Assembly: GCA_964366515.1 (NCBI GenBank)
Contig: CAYIUF010000001.1
Coordinates: forward strand, 51,388 to 115,387
DNA from: an uncultured Gammaproteobacteria bacterium
GTDB lineage: Bacteria > Patescibacteriota > Microgenomatia > UBA8517 > UBA10165
Direction: 5' to 3'
Length of the DNA stretch: 64,000 nucleotides
The notes below the pieces were generated by a model. It searched no databases. It saw only the letters and a program-made list of their open reading frames with translations, and was not told the origin of the DNA. The position numbers were made by a program, and so were the translations under genes. Shown here in pieces: positions 51,302 through 61,978 of this stretch. Positions within the stretch are counted from its first letter, which is position 1. Every line of letters begins with the position of its first letter.

Positions 51302-52064
51302 ACTACCATATTTGTCTGTAGTTGTCCCTGCTTACAACGAAGAAGTAAATATAAAAAGGGGCGCAACGGATCGTCTGCTTTCGTATATGAAAAAGCAAGA
51401 CTATACCTGGGAGGTTTTGTTTGTTGACGATGGCTCTCAAGACAATACTGCAAGCTTACTTTCCGAACTTACAAAAAAAGAAACAAGAGTGCATTTGATT
51501 AAAAACCCTCATCAGGGCAAAGCGGCAACTGTAACAACCGGAGTAATGCAATCAAAAGGAGAAATAATTCTTTTTACAGACACAGATCAAGCAACTCCAA
51601 TGAAAGAAGTTGAAAAATTTTTGCCATACTTTCAAGAAGGCTACGACGTCGTGATCGGCTCCCGGAGCGGGAGGGCTGGAATGCCGGTATTTAGAAAAGT
51701 TATGGCATATGGTTTTGTTATTTTAAGAACAATCGTGCTCCGCCTCCCATTCAAGGATACCCAAACTGGATTCAAAGCATTTACTAGGGATTCAGCGCAC
51801 AGAATTTTTGCAACATTAAAAATCTTTGGAACAAGCGGGGTAATGGGCCAGACAAGAGTCATTAAAGGTGCCGCTGTAAAAGCAGGTTTTGACATAGAAA
51901 TACTGTTCGTGGCCCGAAAATTAGGCTACAAAATCAAGGAGGTCCCGGTTGAATGGCACCATCCAGGGACAACACGCGTCAATCCCTTAAAAGACTCAAT
52001 TGAGGCTCTAAGCGACATGATTAGGATTAGATGGTATGCCTTGCGGGGAGAATACAAAGGTTAA
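51282..52064 (+). CDS. GT2 polyprenyl-phosphate sugar synthase
   Basis: VVVPAYNEEVNI, VDDGSQDNT, TDTDQATP motifs. Confidence 0.85.
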   Translation: MVKNTSELPYLSVVVPAYNEEVNIKRGATDRLLSYMKKQDYTWEVLFVDDGSQDNTASLLSELTKKETRVHLIKNPHQGKAATVTTGVMQSKGEIILFTDTDQATPMKEVEKFLPYFQEGYDVVIGSRSGRAGMPVFRKVMAYGFVILRTIVLRLPFKDTQTGFKAFTRDSAHRIFATLKIFGTSGVMGQTRVIKGAAVKAGFDIEILFVARKLGYKIKEVPVEWHHPGTTRVNPLKDSIEALSDMIRIRWYALRGEYKG

Positions 52065-54291: not shown

Positions 54292-55149
54292 TCACTTCAA
54301 TATATAAATATCCTGGTTAGTCTCAGAAGTCCCCACAAGCTCGCCCGAGCCTCGGAGTATTGCCTCGTAGGGAAGGCAGTTGTTGCACCCGTTAGTGGAG
54401 CAGTTCAAAAGATTCAATTGCCTTGCAAGCTTAATTCGCTTTGCAACCTCCATCACCCTGTCAATTGCGTCTTTTTCTTCAGGTAAGACAGCCTCCTGTG
54501 GGGTGTCGCTTTTATCTATATACCAATAACTTGCTTTCGAAACTGGATACTTTTGAGTATTTTTAGTCAAAAGATAGTATATCGGAAGCTGTAAAGAGCC
54601 CTCAGACTCCTCATTTTTACCGGTCTTGAAGTCAACAATATGAACTGATCCATCGTCCATATATTCCAACCAATCAATCTTCCCACACAAAATTATGTTG
54701 TCTTCTTTGGAAAATAAATATCGCGGCAGTTCAAAATTAGATTTTGACCCGTCCTCTTCTCTTGGGGTGATTTTTATGGCCTTGTTTAGAAGTATTCCCG
54801 GATTTTTCTCTACTCGCGCAAGCATTGCCAAACCCCGCTCTTTGTATTCTGCTTCTTGCTCAGGAGTTCTAAACCCCCCCATTTTCCCTGAAACTTTTGC
54901 CCATGCTTCCTCAAACTTTTTAGATAAAGGCTCCTTAAATCTTTCGGCTGCAGGAAACGCAGACAAGGCCTCCAAAGTCTCATGAACCGCCTGCCCCAAA
55001 GCCAAAGGGGGAGACATAATGGTCATCTTCCTGTTTGTCGCCTTGCTCTTATACATATTTCGAAGATAATAAGACCGGGCACACTTCAAAAAATCTCCAA
55101 TTGAAGAATGAGATACCCAAACCGGCTGGCTTTCTCTGGGCTTGATCAC
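54292..55149 (-). CDS. PD-(D/E)XK nuclease with Cas4-like 4-Cys iron-sulfur module (RecB-family, stand-alone)
   Basis: N-terminal Cys (DFLKCARSYY), a VHIVDFKTGK core (DxK) consistent with a PD-(D/E)XK nuclease fold, C-terminal CSTNGCNNC triad. No cas genes or CRISPR nearby. Confidence 0.65.
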   Translation of the reverse strand: MIKPRESQPVWVSHSSIGDFLKCARSYYLRNMYKSKATNRKMTIMSPPLALGQAVHETLEALSAFPAAERFKEPLSKKFEEAWAKVSGKMGGFRTPEQEAEYKERGLAMLARVEKNPGILLNKAIKITPREEDGSKSNFELPRYLFSKEDNIILCGKIDWLEYMDDGSVHIVDFKTGKNEESEGSLQLPIYYLLTKNTQKYPVSKASYWYIDKSDTPQEAVLPEEKDAIDRVMEVAKRIKLARQLNLLNCSTNGCNNCLPYEAILRGSGELVGTSETNQDIYILK

Positions 55150-55259
55150 AAATACAATCTAGTGCAAATGAGGGAAGCGAGTCAATAAGAAATTGCAGAA
55201 TCTCAAATTAAGGGAATATACTATTAATAAACCGCCACTGATACTACGGCGGGTCAAAG

Positions 55260-55535
55260 GTGGTGAGAAATTTGAAACTTAATCCTCACAAAGTAGGTCT
55301 AACAGTAGGGACAATGTTTGTTATTGTCCATACCATCTGGGGTGTTGGCATAGCCCTTGGCTTTGCCCAAACACTTCTTGATTGGATGATGTCCTTGCAC
55401 TTTGTACAAGTGACCCATTCCTATTCAAGCTTTAACTTAACAAGCTTGCTTACTCTCTTAGTAGTTGCAGCAGTAAGGGGGTACGTAGGAGGCTACATCC
55501 TAGCCAGTGTATGGAACTACTGGAATAAAAAGTAA
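55260..55535 (+). CDS. hypothetical small membrane protein
   Basis: 91 aa, three TM helices, GTG start. Confidence 0.35.
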   Translation: MVRNLKLNPHKVGLTVGTMFVIVHTIWGVGIALGFAQTLLDWMMSLHFVQVTHSYSSFNLTSLLTLLVVAAVRGYVGGYILASVWNYWNKK

Positions 55536-55538
55536 AGG

Positions 55539-55808
55539 TTAGTATTGTCGGTACTTGTCGTGCGTACCGATATCAAGAAGAATTGCAGTTGTTTTATCAA
55601 TCCACATAAAAAATATCCTGCTCCCTTTATCAATTCTTATTGTCCAATAACGGGAGCCTTTAAGCTTTTCTAAATTCAAGCTAGGATGCTTCGGGTTGCT
55701 TACAAACACACGGAGAGCTTTTGTAGTTCTATTAAGAAGTTCGAAGTTGTTTCTCAAAAACTTTCTCCTCTCATGCAAGTATTTTTGAGAATATTTTAAT
55801 TCGATCAC
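55539..55808 (-). CDS. RelE/ParE-family type II toxin
   Basis: 89 aa. KLKGSRYWTIRIDKGSRIFF...DIGTHDKY matches the RelE/ParE core. Immediately downstream of the antitoxin. Confidence 0.7.
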   Translation of the reverse strand: MIELKYSQKYLHERRKFLRNNFELLNRTTKALRVFVSNPKHPSLNLEKLKGSRYWTIRIDKGSRIFFMWIDKTTAILLDIGTHDKYRQY

Positions 55809-55811
55809 GCC

Positions 55812-56081
55812 TTAGAAGCCCGCTTCTTTTCTCATTTCCTCAAAATCAGCCTCTAGCTCTTCTGGTGTAGAAATCGACTTTATTTTCCCAGACCTATATT
55901 CCTTTAAGGCCTCATCCGCGACCGCGTCTAATTGAAGCTTTTCCAAAAGATTAAGGCCAATAATTGCCCCCTGGGGCCTATTATTAGACATAACAACAAT
56001 GGGTTCTTTGGATTTATTTGCCTGCTCCAAAACCTTTTTATACCCTCTTTGAATTTGTCTTGCTGAAATCGTTGCTAACAT
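55812..56081 (-). CDS. Phd/YefM-family type II antitoxin
   Basis: 89 aa. RQIQRGYKKVLEQA...EPIVVMSNNRPQGAIIGL is typical of the Phd/YefM N-domain. 3-nt gap to the toxin gene. Confidence 0.7.
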   Translation of the reverse strand: MLATISARQIQRGYKKVLEQANKSKEPIVVMSNNRPQGAIIGLNLLEKLQLDAVADEALKEYRSGKIKSISTPEELEADFEEMRKEAGF

Positions 56082-56128
56082 ATGTAATCATATTATCACA
56101 TATGTTAATGTATGTCAAGTTGACATAC
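56078..56128 (-). promoter_or_regulatory. TA operon promoter TTGACA-17-TAATAT with operator palindromes
   Basis: Minus strand: TTGACA (56118-56113), 17 nt, TAATAT (56095-56090), 8 nt, ATG. A perfect 19-bp palindrome GTATGTCAAgTTGACATAC (56110-56128) overlaps the -35. Two copies of the self-complementary ACATATGT (56078-56085, 56098-56105) flank the -10. Confidence 0.6.
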
Positions 56129-56140
56129 AACAAGAGAACT

Positions 56141-56548
56141 TCATAAGTTCAAAATTAAGATAGAAAGTTGAAGTAGTGTGGCCAAAATGACCCAAGCCAA
56201 ATAAGGAACCTGTGCCCATGCAACAAAAGGTGAGTATTTATATATTGCCCGAATGCCCCAGACTATAGTCCCAAGGGCGACCAAAATGTCAATTGAAGCC
56301 AGAGGGACATTTTTTAAGCCAAAAAGAAGAGGAGTAAAAAGAAAATTGGCAATTAGATTTATAACAAACGGAGCCAAAACTTTCTTTGGAAACTTGCGAA
56401 TATAAACCTTGTAAAAGACATACCCAAAAGATAGAAAAATAACAGGATAAAGAACTCCCCAAATAGCTCCAATTGTTTCACCCGTTGGAGTCCAAGCAGG
56501 CTTTTCTAAAGCAGAGTACCATTCTTCCCAATTCCAAGAATCAAACAT
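56141..56548 (-). CDS. TspO/MBR tryptophan-rich sensory protein family
   Basis: W-rich 5-TM protein. LEKPAWTP, VLYPVIFLS, and NLIANFLFTPLLFG motifs. Confidence 0.75.
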   Translation of the reverse strand: MFDSWNWEEWYSALEKPAWTPTGETIGAIWGVLYPVIFLSFGYVFYKVYIRKFPKKVLAPFVINLIANFLFTPLLFGLKNVPLASIDILVALGTIVWGIRAIYKYSPFVAWAQVPYLAWVILATLLQLSILILNL

Positions 56549-56644
56549 AATTCGTCACCATTCTATATATTTAACTGAAACACAAACAGTAGATAAGTTC
56601 AATGGATCAAAGTCGAACGCGGACTAAGGATATCAAGCGGCGCT

Positions 56645-57469
56645 TTGGTGTGTTATTATACCTCGCCTCGCCAGACTTGGATGTTCAAAGAAAGATTTAC
56701 AAGAAGACAAGGTTTTGAAAGGGTGGCTGGCGTTGCAGGTGCAGCAGTCCTTGCCCCCGAACTTATCCCCGTAAGAATAAAAATCTTAACTTACCACGCT
56801 TTATCCTCTCCTGACCAAATCTACAACGATGTAATTGCCTTGATGAGATACGATGCAAATCGCACTCCAAAAACAGGTTACTTTCCGACTGATTTAGATA
56901 CTGCCGTTAAACTAATATCCCACGAGGAATCAGCAGACCAACATTTTCTTGTAGTGACATGCGACGATGGCCTTAGCTCACAAATGGATAATGCAAGAGC
57001 TGCGGCAGAAAGAATCGAGAAAGAGACAGGCAGCCCTTGCCCTGTGGAGTTCTTTGTTTTAACAAAGCTTGAAAATTCCCCAGACCCTGTTGAGGAAATG
57101 CCTGATGAAACCCTCTCCTACTTTGATGGAAATGAGGGCAAGCATGCAAACCTGGGGCAGTTAAAGACTATTGCCCGCGCAGGTATTCACAAAATTAGAA
57201 ACCATACGGTAAACCACGCTACGCTGCCTAATTTAACAATAGACGCAAGAAATGGAGAAGTTGAAGATGGGGAGAAGAAAGTGTTGGCAATCTATAGATC
57301 TGTAAAGGCAAAAACTCCGAGGAAAAAAGTGTTCGCATATCCAAGAGGGGCATATGCAGGACAAATTGATTATATATTAAGCCATTACGATATGGCGGTA
57401 AGCACAGAAGCAAAGGAAGTACATTTTATTTCCGATATGGGGCATATAGGAAGAGAAGGAAAAAGTTAA
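56645..57469 (+). CDS. polysaccharide deacetylase (NodB homology domain) family protein
   Basis: VVTCDDGLSS (TFDDG-type motif 1) and NHTVNHATL (His motif). Start uncertain. Confidence 0.5.
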   Translation: MVCYYTSPRQTWMFKERFTRRQGFERVAGVAGAAVLAPELIPVRIKILTYHALSSPDQIYNDVIALMRYDANRTPKTGYFPTDLDTAVKLISHEESADQHFLVVTCDDGLSSQMDNARAAAERIEKETGSPCPVEFFVLTKLENSPDPVEEMPDETLSYFDGNEGKHANLGQLKTIARAGIHKIRNHTVNHATLPNLTIDARNGEVEDGEKKVLAIYRSVKAKTPRKKVFAYPRGAYAGQIDYILSHYDMAVSTEAKEVHFISDMGHIGREGKS

Positions 57470-57654
57470 ATAAGGGCGAGAAGAAACTTTAAAGCAACGA
57501 GTACTAAAAACGCGAGGACAAACAAACGAGCATAATATGGAAGTGTTTTAACTACTGGAATTGAATCAACCAAAGCAACTGATTTTCGGGTGTGATGAAC
57601 TACTCTCCTAGAAGTTCTTCTCTTTGCAACTTTTCTTTTCTTTCGGGCAGCCAT
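57466..57654 (-). CDS. hypothetical small protein with basic N-terminus and C-terminal TM helix
   Basis: 62 aa. MAARKKRKVAKRRTSRR... then LFVLAFLVLVALKFLLALI. SecE-like architecture, but context does not support that call. Confidence 0.3.
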   Translation of the reverse strand: MAARKKRKVAKRRTSRRVVHHTRKSVALVDSIPVVKTLPYYARLFVLAFLVLVALKFLLALI

Positions 57655-57725
57655 GTGTAACTAACTATCTCTTAAAGGAGACATAAATGTCAAGTGGTTA
57701 TTTAAAAAACTGATAGAATAATAAT

Positions 57726-58151
57726 ATGGGGAAAAAACACAAAAGACGCAGGAAAAAGATTTTGATACTCACAAAACCTGTGGTGCCTGAAAAACTAATC
57801 ACCCTCTCAAGAAGCATACCGTTGAATGCAGCCCAGCAGGATAGGATATCTTTCTCAGTTTTGAGAAATGTAAAAAATAAACTAAGAAAAATTGAAAACA
57901 TCTCTTATGAAATTAACATCGATGGTAATTGGGAGTGGGTTGTTCGGTATGACGACCACGGAGGCAAGGGGTCGCTACATAAGCACTATCGAGTTTCGCT
58001 AAAAGACAATAGTGAAGTTGAATCCTCTACAGGAATAAAAAAGTATAAAAACAAAGATTACGAATTGACTTGGGTATGCAAAGACATTAAGCACAATCAT
58101 CAGACATATCGTTCAAAGTTTCTAAAAGCACAGGGACTTGACTTGTATTAA
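57726..58151 (+). CDS. hypothetical protein
   Basis: 141 aa with basic N-terminus. ATG 6 nt after the extended -10 TGATAGAAT (57711-57719). No family recognised. Confidence 0.45.
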   Translation: MGKKHKRRRKKILILTKPVVPEKLITLSRSIPLNAAQQDRISFSVLRNVKNKLRKIENISYEINIDGNWEWVVRYDDHGGKGSLHKHYRVSLKDNSEVESSTGIKKYKNKDYELTWVCKDIKHNHQTYRSKFLKAQGLDLY

Positions 58152-58206
58152 TCAAAAAACTACAGTATTATTACGATCCTCCCACACATAGACTGTAAAA
58201 GAAAAT

Positions 58207-58461
58207 ATGGGCACAAAGCTTCAAACTGAAAAGAATATAGATTTAACACACAAACTGATTGACTACTTGGTGAACGGCAAAGCTGTTCCTGAGCTACCAC
58301 AGGATGTGTCATTTGTCCCCTTTTCCAAAACTGACAAAAAACTTAATAAGGTAAATAACGAGCTGCTTGTAGCTATTTCCAAACAGGAGAAACCAGTCGC
58401 AATCGCTGAAGAACCGAAGTCTAGCGCAGAACCTTGGAAAATAACCCCGGTAAATTTTTAA
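58207..58461 (+). CDS. hypothetical protein
   Basis: 84-aa ORF convergent with, and overlapping by 4 nt, the restriction enzyme gene. Confidence 0.35.
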   Translation: MGTKLQTEKNIDLTHKLIDYLVNGKAVPELPQDVSFVPFSKTDKKLNKVNNELLVAISKQEKPVAIAEEPKSSAEPWKITPVNF

Positions 58462-61127
58462 CCCCCATTCTCAATGATTTCGATCTCCGATGGAGTAAGG
58501 CCGTAGAGTTTATAAACTTCTTGGTCAATTTTTTTATCAGCCTTTTCAATTTCCGAATTTACCAAATTCCACCTCTCAGAATTTCTTTCTAATGATTCCA
58601 GTTGCTTATTTAAGGACAGTATTTTTTCTGAAAGCTGCATAATCGCTTTGCTATCACCTGAAGAGGGTTCAATAATAGGAAATTTATCTAGATGCAGGTT
58701 TTTAAGTTGTGGCGTACTATTTCGATTAGTTACAGCAAAATTTTTGTAATAAATGTTAATGAGTTTTGAATTTAGAATAGCCAACAATAATAGTAGCTTA
58801 TCTCTCTCTACCCCATAAATAAAATACAAAGATTGTTCAGGATAAATACCAGAATCATCAAAAGTCGCTATAATATCGGATCCTGTCTTTCTAAGCAAAA
58901 TTTTATTTTTTACAGATAGTTTACTTTCATCTCGAGTTCTTCCGGTCAAATTTTTATCTGTGAAATTAAACCAATAAAATCCCTTAACCAAGTATCGTCC
59001 AATATTTTCACCCTTTATTATTCTAATTTCTTTTTCACTTTGTTTATTCAAGTGAATTTCAGTTGTCTTTGCACCGCAGCCTGAAGTAGATTCGGCAACC
59101 TGCGATAACAATTTTATCGATGGTTTTGCAAAGATTCTTTCAAATAGATTTTGTATCTTTTGATCGATATAGAAGAAGCTTTTATCATCTTGCTGATCAA
59201 ATACCTTCTGTACGATTTTTGAGTATCCTTGATTTTTATAGTCCCCAATCTCAATTATTTCTCGCAGCCCTGGTTTACTTTTTTGCAATACAAAAATCAT
59301 CGTGTCGGCAATAACGCCAGGAAAGTCAACATTAAAAAGTAGGTGTTTCAGTGTGAAGTTTTGTAAAATATGCTTTCTGAGTTCGACAAATTGCTGGTTA
59401 GAAGCGAGTCTGTCTGGAATAATAAAGCTAAAATACCCATCTTTTTTTAGTAACTCTAGACTCTTGTATATAAACATTTCGTACAAATTTGGCGCATATG
59501 TGTTGGACTTATATTTTTGCGTTAGAAACTCAATTTCTTTTTTAATGAAGTCATCACTTCTAAACTTTCCGCTCATTGATACCCATGGCGGATTCCCAAT
59601 CACAACATCAAAGCCTCCTTGTTTAAAAACCTCTGGGAACTCTTCCTCCCAAATGAAAGGCCTCTTTTCTCGATAATTTATCCCATAAACCGACCTTAGC
59701 TCAGTATCAGTTCCTGAGATCAAAGAGTTTCCGTTCTTAATATTTTTATCTAGGTTTGGTAACTTAAGTTTGCTGTCTAGAGCAAACAAGAGTAGGTTAA
59801 GTCGAGCAATTTCAATAGCTTGTGTGTCAAGGTCGACTCCGTAAATATTCTCCATAAGAATGGTTAGTTTTGTGAAAGTTCCCATAGGGCTTCCGAAGTC
59901 TAAGTGTTTCTGGTAAATAAAATTTGCTGCTTTAATCAAGAATGAACCCGAACCACAGGCAGGATCCAACACTTTTATTTTCTTTAGATCATTTATACTT
60001 TCACATTTATCCAAAACTGGTCCCAAGGTGTTTTTAACGATATAATCCACGACATAGTCGGGCGTGTAATAGATGCCCTGATCTTTTCTTTTCTTTGCAT
60101 CTTTATTAAGTGTGAGCCCTTTTTTTGATTTAAACAGTCTATAACCTAAATAGTTTTCATAAACACCACCAAGAACATCTGAGGGAATAACTTTAAAATC
60201 ATATTCGTAATACCCTTGTTTTCCCTGAAGTATTCGGAAAACCCTCTCAGTTGTGTTGTTCCAGTCTTCCCAGTCCTCAAGGGGATGCTCTGAAAATAAG
60301 TTTGAATCGTATATTTCATCCAACTCTCTAAACTTTGCAATCATAGATTTATATAATGGTATTTCATTACGAGTTTTACTGTTCTCCCAGTCTCGTATAA
60401 GCGGTATTAACGTTGGTGGTTCAATGCCTCGATCTTCTGCCACACGAATAAAAATTAGCCTATCTAAAAGTTTCTGTACACCTTCATCTAGCAGTTCATC
60501 GTCCACGTCGGGATTCATTTGTCCCAGTTTTTCTATTAATAGTTCTCGACACAAGGTAAGGTCTTTATACAAGGAAGAAGTAACAGAAACACGTTGAAGC
60601 TTTTTACCTATTTTTTCGGCTTCTTTATCAATTAGATTTTTTACAAACGCTTCTTTAGACAACAGCCATAGTTGGTCAAAGCGTTCTAGGTAATCGGTAT
60701 ATGGAATTTCGAAGTATAACTTGTCTGATAAATGGCTATCTATTACTTGAGCATTGAATACCTTTAGGCTTTCAAAGTCAGTGAGCACAGCCCATGTTGC
60801 GCCCTTATTCCAGGAGTATTTGATTGCTTGATTTGCATATTCTTCCCTGTGAAGGTCGCTCTTTAGGGGTTTAGCCTCCAAGTAGAATTTAAGTCTATTG
60901 CTTACATAAAACCCGAAATCAACACGACCATTTGATTGATGCTCCTCGGCAGTAACCTCACTCCTATCCGCAGTGTCCCAGCCAAGTGCATCGAATAAGG
61001 GACGGATGAAGCCATTCTTTGTGTCTTCCTCGGTGTATTTGTTTATATCCCCCGACTTCTTAACCAATTCATACTTTTCTATTAACTGCCTCACTTTCTC
61101 TCGCGCAGAGTGCATTGAATCATTCAT
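58458..61127 (-). CDS. Type IIG/IIL restriction-modification fusion enzyme (N-terminal PD-ExK endonuclease + gamma-class N6-adenine methyltransferase + target recognition domain; Eco57I/MmeI-like)
   Basis: N-terminal VDFGFYVSNRLKFYLEAKPL (D...ExK), MTase motif I LDPACGSGSFL, motif IV VIGNPPW. 889 aa. Confidence 0.85.
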   Translation of the reverse strand: MNDSMHSAREKVRQLIEKYELVKKSGDINKYTEEDTKNGFIRPLFDALGWDTADRSEVTAEEHQSNGRVDFGFYVSNRLKFYLEAKPLKSDLHREEYANQAIKYSWNKGATWAVLTDFESLKVFNAQVIDSHLSDKLYFEIPYTDYLERFDQLWLLSKEAFVKNLIDKEAEKIGKKLQRVSVTSSLYKDLTLCRELLIEKLGQMNPDVDDELLDEGVQKLLDRLIFIRVAEDRGIEPPTLIPLIRDWENSKTRNEIPLYKSMIAKFRELDEIYDSNLFSEHPLEDWEDWNNTTERVFRILQGKQGYYEYDFKVIPSDVLGGVYENYLGYRLFKSKKGLTLNKDAKKRKDQGIYYTPDYVVDYIVKNTLGPVLDKCESINDLKKIKVLDPACGSGSFLIKAANFIYQKHLDFGSPMGTFTKLTILMENIYGVDLDTQAIEIARLNLLLFALDSKLKLPNLDKNIKNGNSLISGTDTELRSVYGINYREKRPFIWEEEFPEVFKQGGFDVVIGNPPWVSMSGKFRSDDFIKKEIEFLTQKYKSNTYAPNLYEMFIYKSLELLKKDGYFSFIIPDRLASNQQFVELRKHILQNFTLKHLLFNVDFPGVIADTMIFVLQKSKPGLREIIEIGDYKNQGYSKIVQKVFDQQDDKSFFYIDQKIQNLFERIFAKPSIKLLSQVAESTSGCGAKTTEIHLNKQSEKEIRIIKGENIGRYLVKGFYWFNFTDKNLTGRTRDESKLSVKNKILLRKTGSDIIATFDDSGIYPEQSLYFIYGVERDKLLLLLAILNSKLINIYYKNFAVTNRNSTPQLKNLHLDKFPIIEPSSGDSKAIMQLSEKILSLNKQLESLERNSERWNLVNSEIEKADKKIDQEVYKLYGLTPSEIEIIENGG

Positions 61128-61171: not shown

Positions 61172-61978
61172 TTATAGATAGGAGGTCTGAGCAGCGACCC
61201 TTTTTAATTCGGTAAACCGACTTTGAGCCATCTCCAAGTATTTCGGATCAGAATCAATCCCCACAAAACTTCTGCCATACAAACTAGCAACAACCCCAGT
61301 TGTCCCACTCCCACAAAACGGATCTAAAATCGAATCACCTTTTCTTGTGCAAGACAAAATAATTCTCTTTAACAACTCTTGGGGTTTTTGGGTTGGATGC
61401 TTTCCAAACTTTCTTTCAATTAAACCTGGTGCATGTATTGCCCAGACAGAACCCATTTGTTCTCCCTGTTTTTTCAAAAAATCCTGCCCCCAGTCAGTCT
61501 TTTTTAAATACTCGTATGAAAACTTATGTTTCGCAATCTTTTCTTTCTTTGCCCAAATTAGGGACTCATGTTGGGCTTTAAACATTCTGCCCGAAATGTT
61601 ATCCGCAGATTTTGGTTTATACCAAGCAATCTCGTTTAATATGTGGAAACCTTCCAGTTCAAGTGCATACCCGCATTTGTAGATATTATGGTATGTTCCG
61701 GACAGCCATATTGTGCCGTCTGGCTTTAATAACCTTCGGCACTCACTTATCCACTTTTTGTGGAACTTAAAATCTTCCTCTACTCCTTCGGACTTATCCC
61801 ACCCTCCTTTGTTTACAGAAACTAACCTCCCAGACTCACTTGTAAATCCGCCATTCGACAATCTGTAGGGAGGATCAGCATAAATCATGTCAAAACTGTC
61901 TGCGGGAAGTTGAGGGAGAATTTCTAAACTATTACCGTGATATAACGTAAATCTGTCCTTTTGAAAATAGGGGTTCAT
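61172..61978 (-). CDS. beta-class DNA methyltransferase (N6-adenine or N4-cytosine), stand-alone
   Basis: Motif IV IYADPPY precedes motif I ILDPFCGSGTT (beta-class order). 268 aa. Immediately upstream of, and co-oriented with, the IIG enzyme. Confidence 0.9.
   Translation of the reverse strand: MNPYFQKDRFTLYHGNSLEILPQLPADSFDMIYADPPYRLSNGGFTSESGRLVSVNKGGWDKSEGVEEDFKFHKKWISECRRLLKPDGTIWLSGTYHNIYKCGYALELEGFHILNEIAWYKPKSADNISGRMFKAQHESLIWAKKEKIAKHKFSYEYLKKTDWGQDFLKKQGEQMGSVWAIHAPGLIERKFGKHPTQKPQELLKRIILSCTRKGDSILDPFCGSGTTGVVASLYGRSFVGIDSDPKYLEMAQSRFTELKRVAAQTSYL

Follow-up and report, generated by a model that had tools for sequence, protein, structure and literature searches.

TumE (Pfam PF20126, formerly DUF6516) is a toxin that arrests growth and inhibits translation, and a variety of TumA partners neutralise it (Durairaj et al. 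2023, PMC10584680). A gene pair with some of the features of such systems was examined in a stretch of DNA of 64,000 nucleotides (nt), here called the window, which spans positions 51,388 to 115,387 of contig CAYIUF010000001.1 (assembly GCA_964366515.1). The pair consists of a DUF7718 gene (57726..58151, + strand), which encodes 141 amino acids (aa) and is the proposed toxin, followed by a gene for a DUF5647-like protein of 84 aa (58207..58461, + strand), which is the proposed antitoxin or partner. With confidence that is evenly balanced, the pair is read here as being most likely a putative bicistronic type II toxin-antitoxin (TA)-like cassette, located on the margin of a variable region rich in defence genes, in a groundwater genome of the Candidate Phyla Radiation (CPR), of the Daviesbacteria/Levybacteria type. 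A TA-type reading is proposed because the two genes form a small linked pair which has plasmid copies, a patchy distribution and variable neighbours; family membership, the strictness of the linkage and the pattern of disruption complete the observed basis.

All open reading frames (ORFs) named by a first-pass annotation of the window were found where it had placed them. The two genes of the pair were described there as unknown, which does not hold, as the first is a Pfam DUF7718 member and the second is DUF5647-like. The 141-aa protein matches DUF7718 (PF24839) with 40.3 bits against a cut-off of 25 (E 3e-10), and the same model matches all 42 of its diverse relatives. The 84-aa protein scores 23.5 bits against the DUF5647 model (PF18882; E 4.7e-5), which is below the gathering threshold of 27; for about one in three of its close homologues a PF18882 match had been precomputed, and it has the fold of the solved DUF5647 member TTHC002 (PDB 2dbs). 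Homology to housekeeping proteins, which the first-pass annotation had named as an outcome that would count against its reading, was found for neither gene.

The CPR DUF7718 proteins are built from a K/R-rich N-terminal tail of variable length and a conserved core, W69..RYD76..H85xH87, in which H87 is invariant and W69, D76, H85, W116 and F132 are nearly so (W116 and F132 lying beyond this motif). Close homologues number 163, share 59-74% identity and are nearly all 141 aa long. The isoelectric point (pI) of the window protein is 10.0, and that of its DUF5647-like partner is 7.95. Sequence and profile searches of the PDB with DUF7718, using both the CPR sequences and the Thermus protein described below, gave no match, and the structure model of DUF7718 was too poor to help. 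Six separate stretches of a 3634-aa protein from the library of representatives (P0278) also match the DUF7718 profile (positions 32-96, E 4.8e-8); this may be a repeat protein derived from the beta-sheet part of the domain, or a compositional artefact.

Loci fetched for comparison were grouped into 40 lineages at 97% nucleotide identity. DUF5647 lies directly downstream of DUF7718, and is co-oriented with it, in all 33 CPR lineages with enough sequence, and the spacing is usually 26-64 nt. The sole exception to this spacing is locus L037 (959-1843), where an insertion sequence (IS) element with a 294-aa transposase is located between the genes; they are ~980 nt apart and the last DUF7718 residues are changed, but both ORFs are still open. 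The CPR subfamily is narrow and patchy: 185,579 species genomes yielded 11 loci, and a set of 1.84 billion representatives contained 113 clusters. Despite this patchy, accessory spread, homologues of the two proteins retain 59-79% identity and near-constant lengths (141 aa and 84 aa); their sources are groundwater metagenomes and the genomes of Candidatus Daviesbacteria and Levybacteria. The pair-bearing contigs L016-L021 are labelled Nanoarchaeota, Gammaproteobacteria or Lysobacterales in the records of metagenome-assembled genomes, and their pairs are 52-67% identical to that of the window; these host labels look like binning or labelling errors and not true hosts.

The same two families are also found together in Thermus. 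Plasmid pTT8 of Thermus thermophilus HB8 encodes a 109-aa DUF7718 protein (E 3.5e-20), the gene for which overlaps that of a 90-aa DUF5647 protein (E 7.8e-22), and 14 small plasmids of Thermus carry such a pair, with DUF2283, DUF2442 and DUF6290-RelE/ParE genes as neighbours. The pTT8 pair TTH_RS11305/TTH_RS11310, and the second-copy protein TTHC002 (2dbs), share with the CPR pair both Pfam families, the gene order and the orientation. They differ in that sequence identity to the CPR pair is very low, and in that the Thermus genes are plasmid-borne and overlap by 4-10 nt, whereas the CPR genes are chromosomal and 26-64 nt apart. The Thermus DUF7718 protein is moreover acidic (pI 6.1), is without the basic N-terminal tail and has H-R-D in place of H-x-H. 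A word-indexed search with this protein recovered Thermus relatives only. When CPR and Thermus profiles were aligned with hhalign, those of DUF7718 matched over 82 columns (probability 85%, E 5.8e-6), and those of DUF5647 gave no significant match (E 0.13). Because the arrangement is the same and the DUF7718 profiles align, the pairing is taken to hold in two distant phyla. On plasmid pTthSNM1-7e (L076:1540-1680), a 46-aa C-terminal remnant of DUF5647 was seen with no DUF7718 upstream and with a DUF2283/DUF4258 pair adjoining, which looks like an end stage of cassette decay.

DUF7718 is broken while DUF5647 is intact in six loci. In L011 there is a stop codon at the invariant W71, in L021 an in-frame deletion of 25 aa takes out exactly the conserved YDDHGG..LHxH, and in L061 there is a frameshift which is not seen in the sister contig L063. 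The remaining three are on Thermus plasmids; in the second copy on pTT8 DUF7718 has decayed next to the intact DUF5647 gene (TTHC002), and it is interrupted by IS3 in pHB5018e and by IS982 in pAA2-2d. The reverse case, with DUF5647 broken and DUF7718 intact, was seen once (L055), and is doubtful because the contig, of 1.2 kb, ends 15 nt from the stop. This asymmetry is the pattern expected if DUF7718 is the toxic partner, and is suggestive of that role.

The same disruptions bear on whether the roles could be reversed, with DUF5647 as the toxin and DUF7718 as the antitoxin or a DNA-binding regulator. The usual order in type II TA systems is antitoxin first, so the upstream position of DUF7718 would fit such an exchange, and its K/R-rich N-terminal tail could bind DNA. 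However, toxin-first order is established for HigBA, HicAB and MqsRA and was also found in the haloarchaeal TumE loci read here, the candidate E69-x-K71 motif of DUF5647 is not conserved (K71 varies), and an intact DUF5647 beside a broken DUF7718, as seen in the six loci, should be lethal or strongly counter-selected if DUF5647 were an active toxin. An exchange of roles is thus considered very improbable.

TumE was the closest characterised toxin with which DUF7718 could be compared. As controls, eight real TumE proteins from plasmids were used, the identity of which was confirmed by annotation and Pfam; they matched PF20126 down to E 5e-25 and none matched DUF7718. The tested TumE is absent from the M. 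alcaliphilum plasmid. Both families are alpha+beta proteins of ~100-140 aa, in which a beta-sheet is followed by a C-terminal helix and a central R-Y-D-[DNST] strand is followed by H-x-H. Both are also encoded in two-gene cassettes with a small unrelated partner, are found on plasmids and in patchy genomic locations, and, in the haloarchaeal loci, have the toxin-first order proposed for the window. In contrast, DUF5647 is not among the described types of TumA, the CPR DUF7718 proteins have the extra K/R-rich N-terminal tail, and toxicity has been demonstrated for TumE only. Judged by its sequence, the DUF7718 protein is not a member of the TumE family, and a distant relationship at the level of a superfamily is possible.

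The generic features of type II TA systems are present in part. The genes are small, adjacent, co-oriented and inherited together, and their spread is patchy, on plasmids or in islands, with variable neighbours. A number of results nevertheless weigh against a TA cassette. Neither an antitoxin DNA-binding domain nor an operator palindrome in the promoter was found; no helix-turn-helix, ribbon-helix-helix, AbrB or Phd match was obtained for either protein in Pfam or NCBIfam, and an operator search upstream of the cassette returned an AT-rich 10-nt palindrome only, with no clear operator. No PADLOC or NCBIfam model matches the DUF7718 or DUF5647 proteins, and in the literature the two families are mentioned in no paper and have no experiment to their name, with TTHC002 named in passing in two papers. 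The likeness to TumE is also faint, as the TumE model gave no match at E <=0.1 for the window protein or 41 relatives, and hhalign aligned DUF7718 and TumE over 19-22 columns across RYD...HxH with a low probability of 9.8-15.4% (P 0.0017-0.0033). The score of this alignment (24.3) exceeded those of all 200 column shuffles (mean 10.6, maximum 18.9) and of the reversed alignment (13.1), but was reached in 10 of 200 trials when blocks of six columns were shuffled. The disruption pattern is treated as suggestive only, because a ratio of 6:1 set against a gene-length ratio of 1.5:1 is not significant (one-sided binomial ~0.16), and the frameshift in L061 may be a sequencing error. Identity of 60-79% over many lineages is high for a TA pair. 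Lastly, no copy of the pair was found in the viral and phage collections IMG/VR and INPHARED, and on these grounds a phage origin of the pair was rejected.

If the TA reading is followed, we infer toxicity, neutralisation and a target from the features of the two proteins. The basic DUF7718 protein would be the growth-inhibiting component, and the centre formed by D76...H85-x-H87 on a beta-sheet, together with the K/R-rich N-terminal tail, would direct it to a nucleic-acid target; the likeliest activity would be RNA- or translation-directed, as in TumE. The near-neutral DUF5647 protein would neutralise it by direct binding. Transcription of the cassette would probably start at or next to the ATG of DUF7718, from an extended -10 element.

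That element (TGaTAGAAT, 57711-57719) lies 6 nt ahead of the DUF7718 ATG, within an intergenic region (57655..57725) in which sequence inspection showed divergent promoter-like elements. The first-pass annotation had proposed a leaderless extended -10 promoter for this gene; the element is real, and TGATA(G/A)AAT is found 6-7 nt before the start codon in three of 11 related loci (L011, L015 and L020), but the region as a whole has about as many promoter-like matches as chance would give (4, with 3.1 +/- 1.6 expected). The sharing of the element by these loci gives modest support for a transcript that may be leaderless or nearly so. An 8-codon mini-ORF proposed in the same place does exist (57687-57713), but its ATG is at 57687 and not 57685, and it is not conserved. 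Read on the opposite strand, its start, ATGTCAA, contains a TTGACA hexamer that resembles a -35 element. As the mini-ORF and its Shine-Dalgarno sequence are absent from all 11 related upstream regions, a conserved leader peptide was ruled out. The hexamer on the opposite strand belongs to a promoter-like site, TTGACA-18-GATAGT (57664-57693, - strand), with 10 of 12 matches, which is a match to consensus only and which ends 9 nt upstream of an ORF of 62 aa (57466..57654, - strand).

This 62-aa ORF, with a basic N-terminus and a hydrophobic C-terminus, had been grouped with the cassette genes as one of three unknown small genes. The grouping breaks down, since two of the three are the catalogued DUF pair and the third is without gene evidence: the 62-aa ORF has no family match and is missing from a collection of 15 billion proteins, gene calling did not predict it in either of two assemblies of the same strain (L030/L031), and neither JGI metagenomes nor any related locus yielded relatives. 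It is probably not a real gene.

The neighbours of the pair were surveyed in 13 loci (140 proteins). The commonest families were RhuM (five, also the PADLOC candidate PDC-S05) and PDDEXK_1 (four), followed by N6_Mtase/Eco57I and dCTP deaminase with three each, and by ThyA, DHFR, Tmk, dNK, MazG, RadC, a Schlafen-type helicase, Y-family polymerase, Methylase_S, DUF2283 and DUF5678 with two each. Other small TA-type pairs also recur as neighbours (HicA, DUF2283, DUF5678, DUF433/DUF5615). The loci without restriction-modification (R-M) genes, L011, L015 and L020 among them, have the pair set among dCTP deaminase, thymidylate synthase, DHFR, thymidylate kinase, deoxynucleoside kinase and MazG-like genes. 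A second small pair, formed by DUF5678 (65-68 aa) and an unannotated protein of 136-139 aa, was seen in L004 (5145-5756) and L007 (3375-3997), and looks like another TA-type module.

Such neighbours would fit a different account, in which the pair is non-toxic and has some other role, for example as a nucleic-acid-binding or regulatory module for DNA repair and nucleotide metabolism, perhaps acting with a PD-(D/E)XK nuclease. A nuclease of this kind lies within 4 kb of the pair in seven lineages, and in L007 and L021 it is the next gene upstream, in divergent orientation. Genes for dCTP deaminase, ThyA, DHFR, Tmk, dNK, MazG, Y-family polymerase and RadC recur, as listed above, and the region of the window itself is flanked by AlkA-type and UDG-type glycosylases, as well as by glycosyltransferases. 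The unusually high conservation and constant lengths of the two proteins would also suit such a module, and the lack of significance in the disruption asymmetry favours it too. On the other side, the Thermus plasmid pairs sit in TA-type clusters without PD-(D/E)XK or nucleotide-metabolism genes, the presence of the pair in so few species genomes is patchy, its immediate neighbours differ in almost every lineage, and DUF7718 has been inactivated repeatedly with its partner kept. A non-toxic module of this kind is regarded as unlikely, if far from negligible.

In the window the pair adjoins an R-M gene. The DUF5647 gene is convergent with a gene for an 889-aa Type IIG R-M enzyme (58458..61127, - strand; Pfam Eco57I 7.3e-36, PADLOC REase_MTase_IIG 1.4e-92), and the two overlap by 4 nt at their stops (58458-58461); that the small gene overlaps the restriction gene stop had been noted. 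The enzyme has HSDR_N (residues 30-64), Eco57I/N6_Mtase/MmeI_Mtase (343-647) and TaqI_C (703-818) domains, and so combines, in the single polypeptide typical of Type IIG, an N-terminal nuclease region, a gamma-class N6-adenine methyltransferase and a TaqI_C-type specificity domain. The GC content over the gene (58458-61000) is 0.34-0.35, against ~0.42 for the window, and because of this dip horizontal acquisition is proposed; it suggests that the gene was recently acquired. Next to it is a CcrM-like N6/N4 DNA methyltransferase of 268 aa (61172..61978, - strand; Pfam N6_N4_Mtase 1.9e-56), which matches the CcrM-type NCBIfam model (9.8e-66) under its equivalog cut-off; in the L020 group a homologue with 52% identity is found downstream of the pair, at a distance of 2.6 kb.

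Stop overlaps of 4 nt between DUF5647 and a convergent gene were also seen in L007 (6740-6743), L009 (6735-6738), L010 (7925-7928), L022 (2158-2161) and L026 (1731-1734). The convergent partner varies, being the Type IIG R-M gene, its remnant, HsdS, DUF2283 or a hypothetical gene, in CPR and Thermus alike. The Type IIG enzymes of the pair loci (window, L013:4084-6647 and L004:7873-10554) have their N-terminal nuclease/methylase part in common, with 62% identity between the window and L013, and their C-terminal specificity domains are sharply different (33%). This looks like swapping of target-recognition domains between close relatives.

The position of the R-M gene raises the question of whether the pair is part of, or accessory to, an anti-phage defence system with the R-M enzyme and/or the Cas4-like nuclease described below, as an abortive-infection back-up or a restriction regulator. 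Beside the convergent, stop-overlapping arrangement in the window, homologues of the Type IIG enzyme are in the same position in the L004 group and in L013, a 26-aa remnant directly follows the pair in L007, a Type I R-M system follows it in L008 and L009, and RhuM/PDC-S05 is near the pair in four lineages. An R-M gene was found within ~6 kb downstream in at least 5 of the 18 lineages with at least 3 kb of downstream flank (a count made with a limited query set), and one more has the Type IIG remnant. However, there is no R-M gene within 6 kb in at least 12 of the 18 lineages with adequate flank, the type of R-M system varies by locus, in L004-6 the pair is separated from the R-M gene by HicAB, the pair-bearing Thermus plasmids have no adjacent R-M gene, and the PADLOC models pass over both proteins. 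Such a role in defence is considered improbable.

The first-pass annotation had described the region as a defence island. In favour of this, the stretch has the Type IIG R-M gene with its adjacent methyltransferase, a Phd-family pair and a second TA-like pair, and the cassette recurs near R-M, RhuM and TA genes in other loci, as the survey of the homologues of 57726-58151 proposed with that description brought out; but many loci are without R-M genes, so that the link is not universal, and repair and nucleotide-metabolism genes are equally frequent. The PADLOC run which had also been proposed matched the R-M enzyme and the Cas4-like nuclease and no other gene of the region. The pair is thus located where R-M, RhuM and TA genes turn over, and the defence-island description is partly supported.

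The Cas4-like nuclease (54292..55149, - strand) is a PD-(D/E)XK protein of 285 aa with Cas4/AddB-type cysteines, for which the best family is the generic PDDEXK_1 (Pfam E 1.9e-22). Like the Cas4/AddB-type Fe-S nucleases it has one N-terminal and three C-terminal cysteines (Cys23 and C250/C255/C258) and the D, DxK and QxxxY motifs (D173xK175, Q187xxxY191), and PADLOC Cas4 models match it down to 5e-13. Unlike Cas4, it has a longer N-terminal part and no cas genes or CRISPR array nearby. It had been described as an orphan Cas4-like nuclease; the four-cysteine signature, the RecB-type motifs and the absence of CRISPR-cas bear this out, but the Cas4 models score below their cut-offs (Pfam Cas_Cas4, PF01930, 21.4 against 22.7; TIGR00372, 40.3 against 65), and because both fall short the label is valid at the level of motifs only. 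The protein is not a bona fide Cas4, and would act as a repair or recombination nuclease. No cas families are present among the genes of the region or among the 25 commonest families of the 140 neighbour proteins, no cas genes were seen in any locus read, and an Rfam scan of the window returned two tRNAs only and no CRISPR family.

The second TA candidate of the region is a Phd/YefM-family antitoxin gene (55812..56081, - strand; Pfam PhdYeFM_antitox, PF02604, 1.3e-7), which clears the cut-offs of both PF02604 (31.7 bits against 29.8) and TIGR01552 (22.4 against 20.8). The gene 3 nt downstream of it (55539..55808, - strand) encodes a basic protein of 89 aa (pI 10.3), a probable RelE/ParE-like toxin partner of Phd. 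The antitoxin half of the RelE/Phd pair that had been announced is therefore firm, but the identity of the RelE half is weaker than claimed, as its sole match is PHROG 3066, 'toxin of TA system' (E 7.8e-4), with nothing in Pfam, NCBIfam or PDB sequence searches. The two genes are kept together in L007/L066 at 69-75% identity.

The other genes of the region are a hydrophobic 91-aa protein (55260..55535, + strand), which is called as a gene and forms a singleton cluster, with no significant match in family scans and no counterpart in related loci; a TspO/MBR membrane protein (56141..56548, - strand; Pfam TspO_MBR 2.8e-26); and a polysaccharide deacetylase-domain protein (56645..57469, + strand; Pfam Polysacc_deac_1 1.6e-7). 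None of TspO, the deacetylase, AlkA and UDG is a defence gene. The Phd/RelE-like pair, the Cas4-like nuclease, TspO, the deacetylase and the Type IIG enzyme would all be independent of the cassette. Most genes of the stretch are ordinary and already annotatable, and the lone item of interest is the DUF7718-DUF5647 cassette, which is conserved and looks mobile.

Taken to its full extent, the TA reading would make DUF7718-DUF5647 an unrecognised TA family of CPR and Thermus plasmids, in which the toxin would be a very distant branch of the TumE superfamily of translation-targeting toxins and the antitoxin a structurally new one of the 2dbs fold that lacks a DNA-binding domain. The family would then be a marker, in Daviesbacteria and Levybacteria, of a hot spot for the exchange of R-M, RhuM and other TA genes, which it might also help to stabilise or to back up. 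This fuller proposal is offered tentatively, as its probability is put somewhat short of even. Both families are already catalogued, and nothing categorically new is involved. If the pair is a true TA module, there would be a function for two Pfam DUFs and for 2dbs, an orphan structure from structural genomics, and the TumE superfamily, which was recently defined, would gain a new toxin branch and a new antitoxin fold. CPR bacteria have tiny genomes, the mobile and defence genes of which are poorly charted; the pair would be among the few conserved, experimentally tractable selfish or defence-linked modules from these organisms, and would serve as a practical marker of the variable defence region in Daviesbacteria and Levybacteria genomes.

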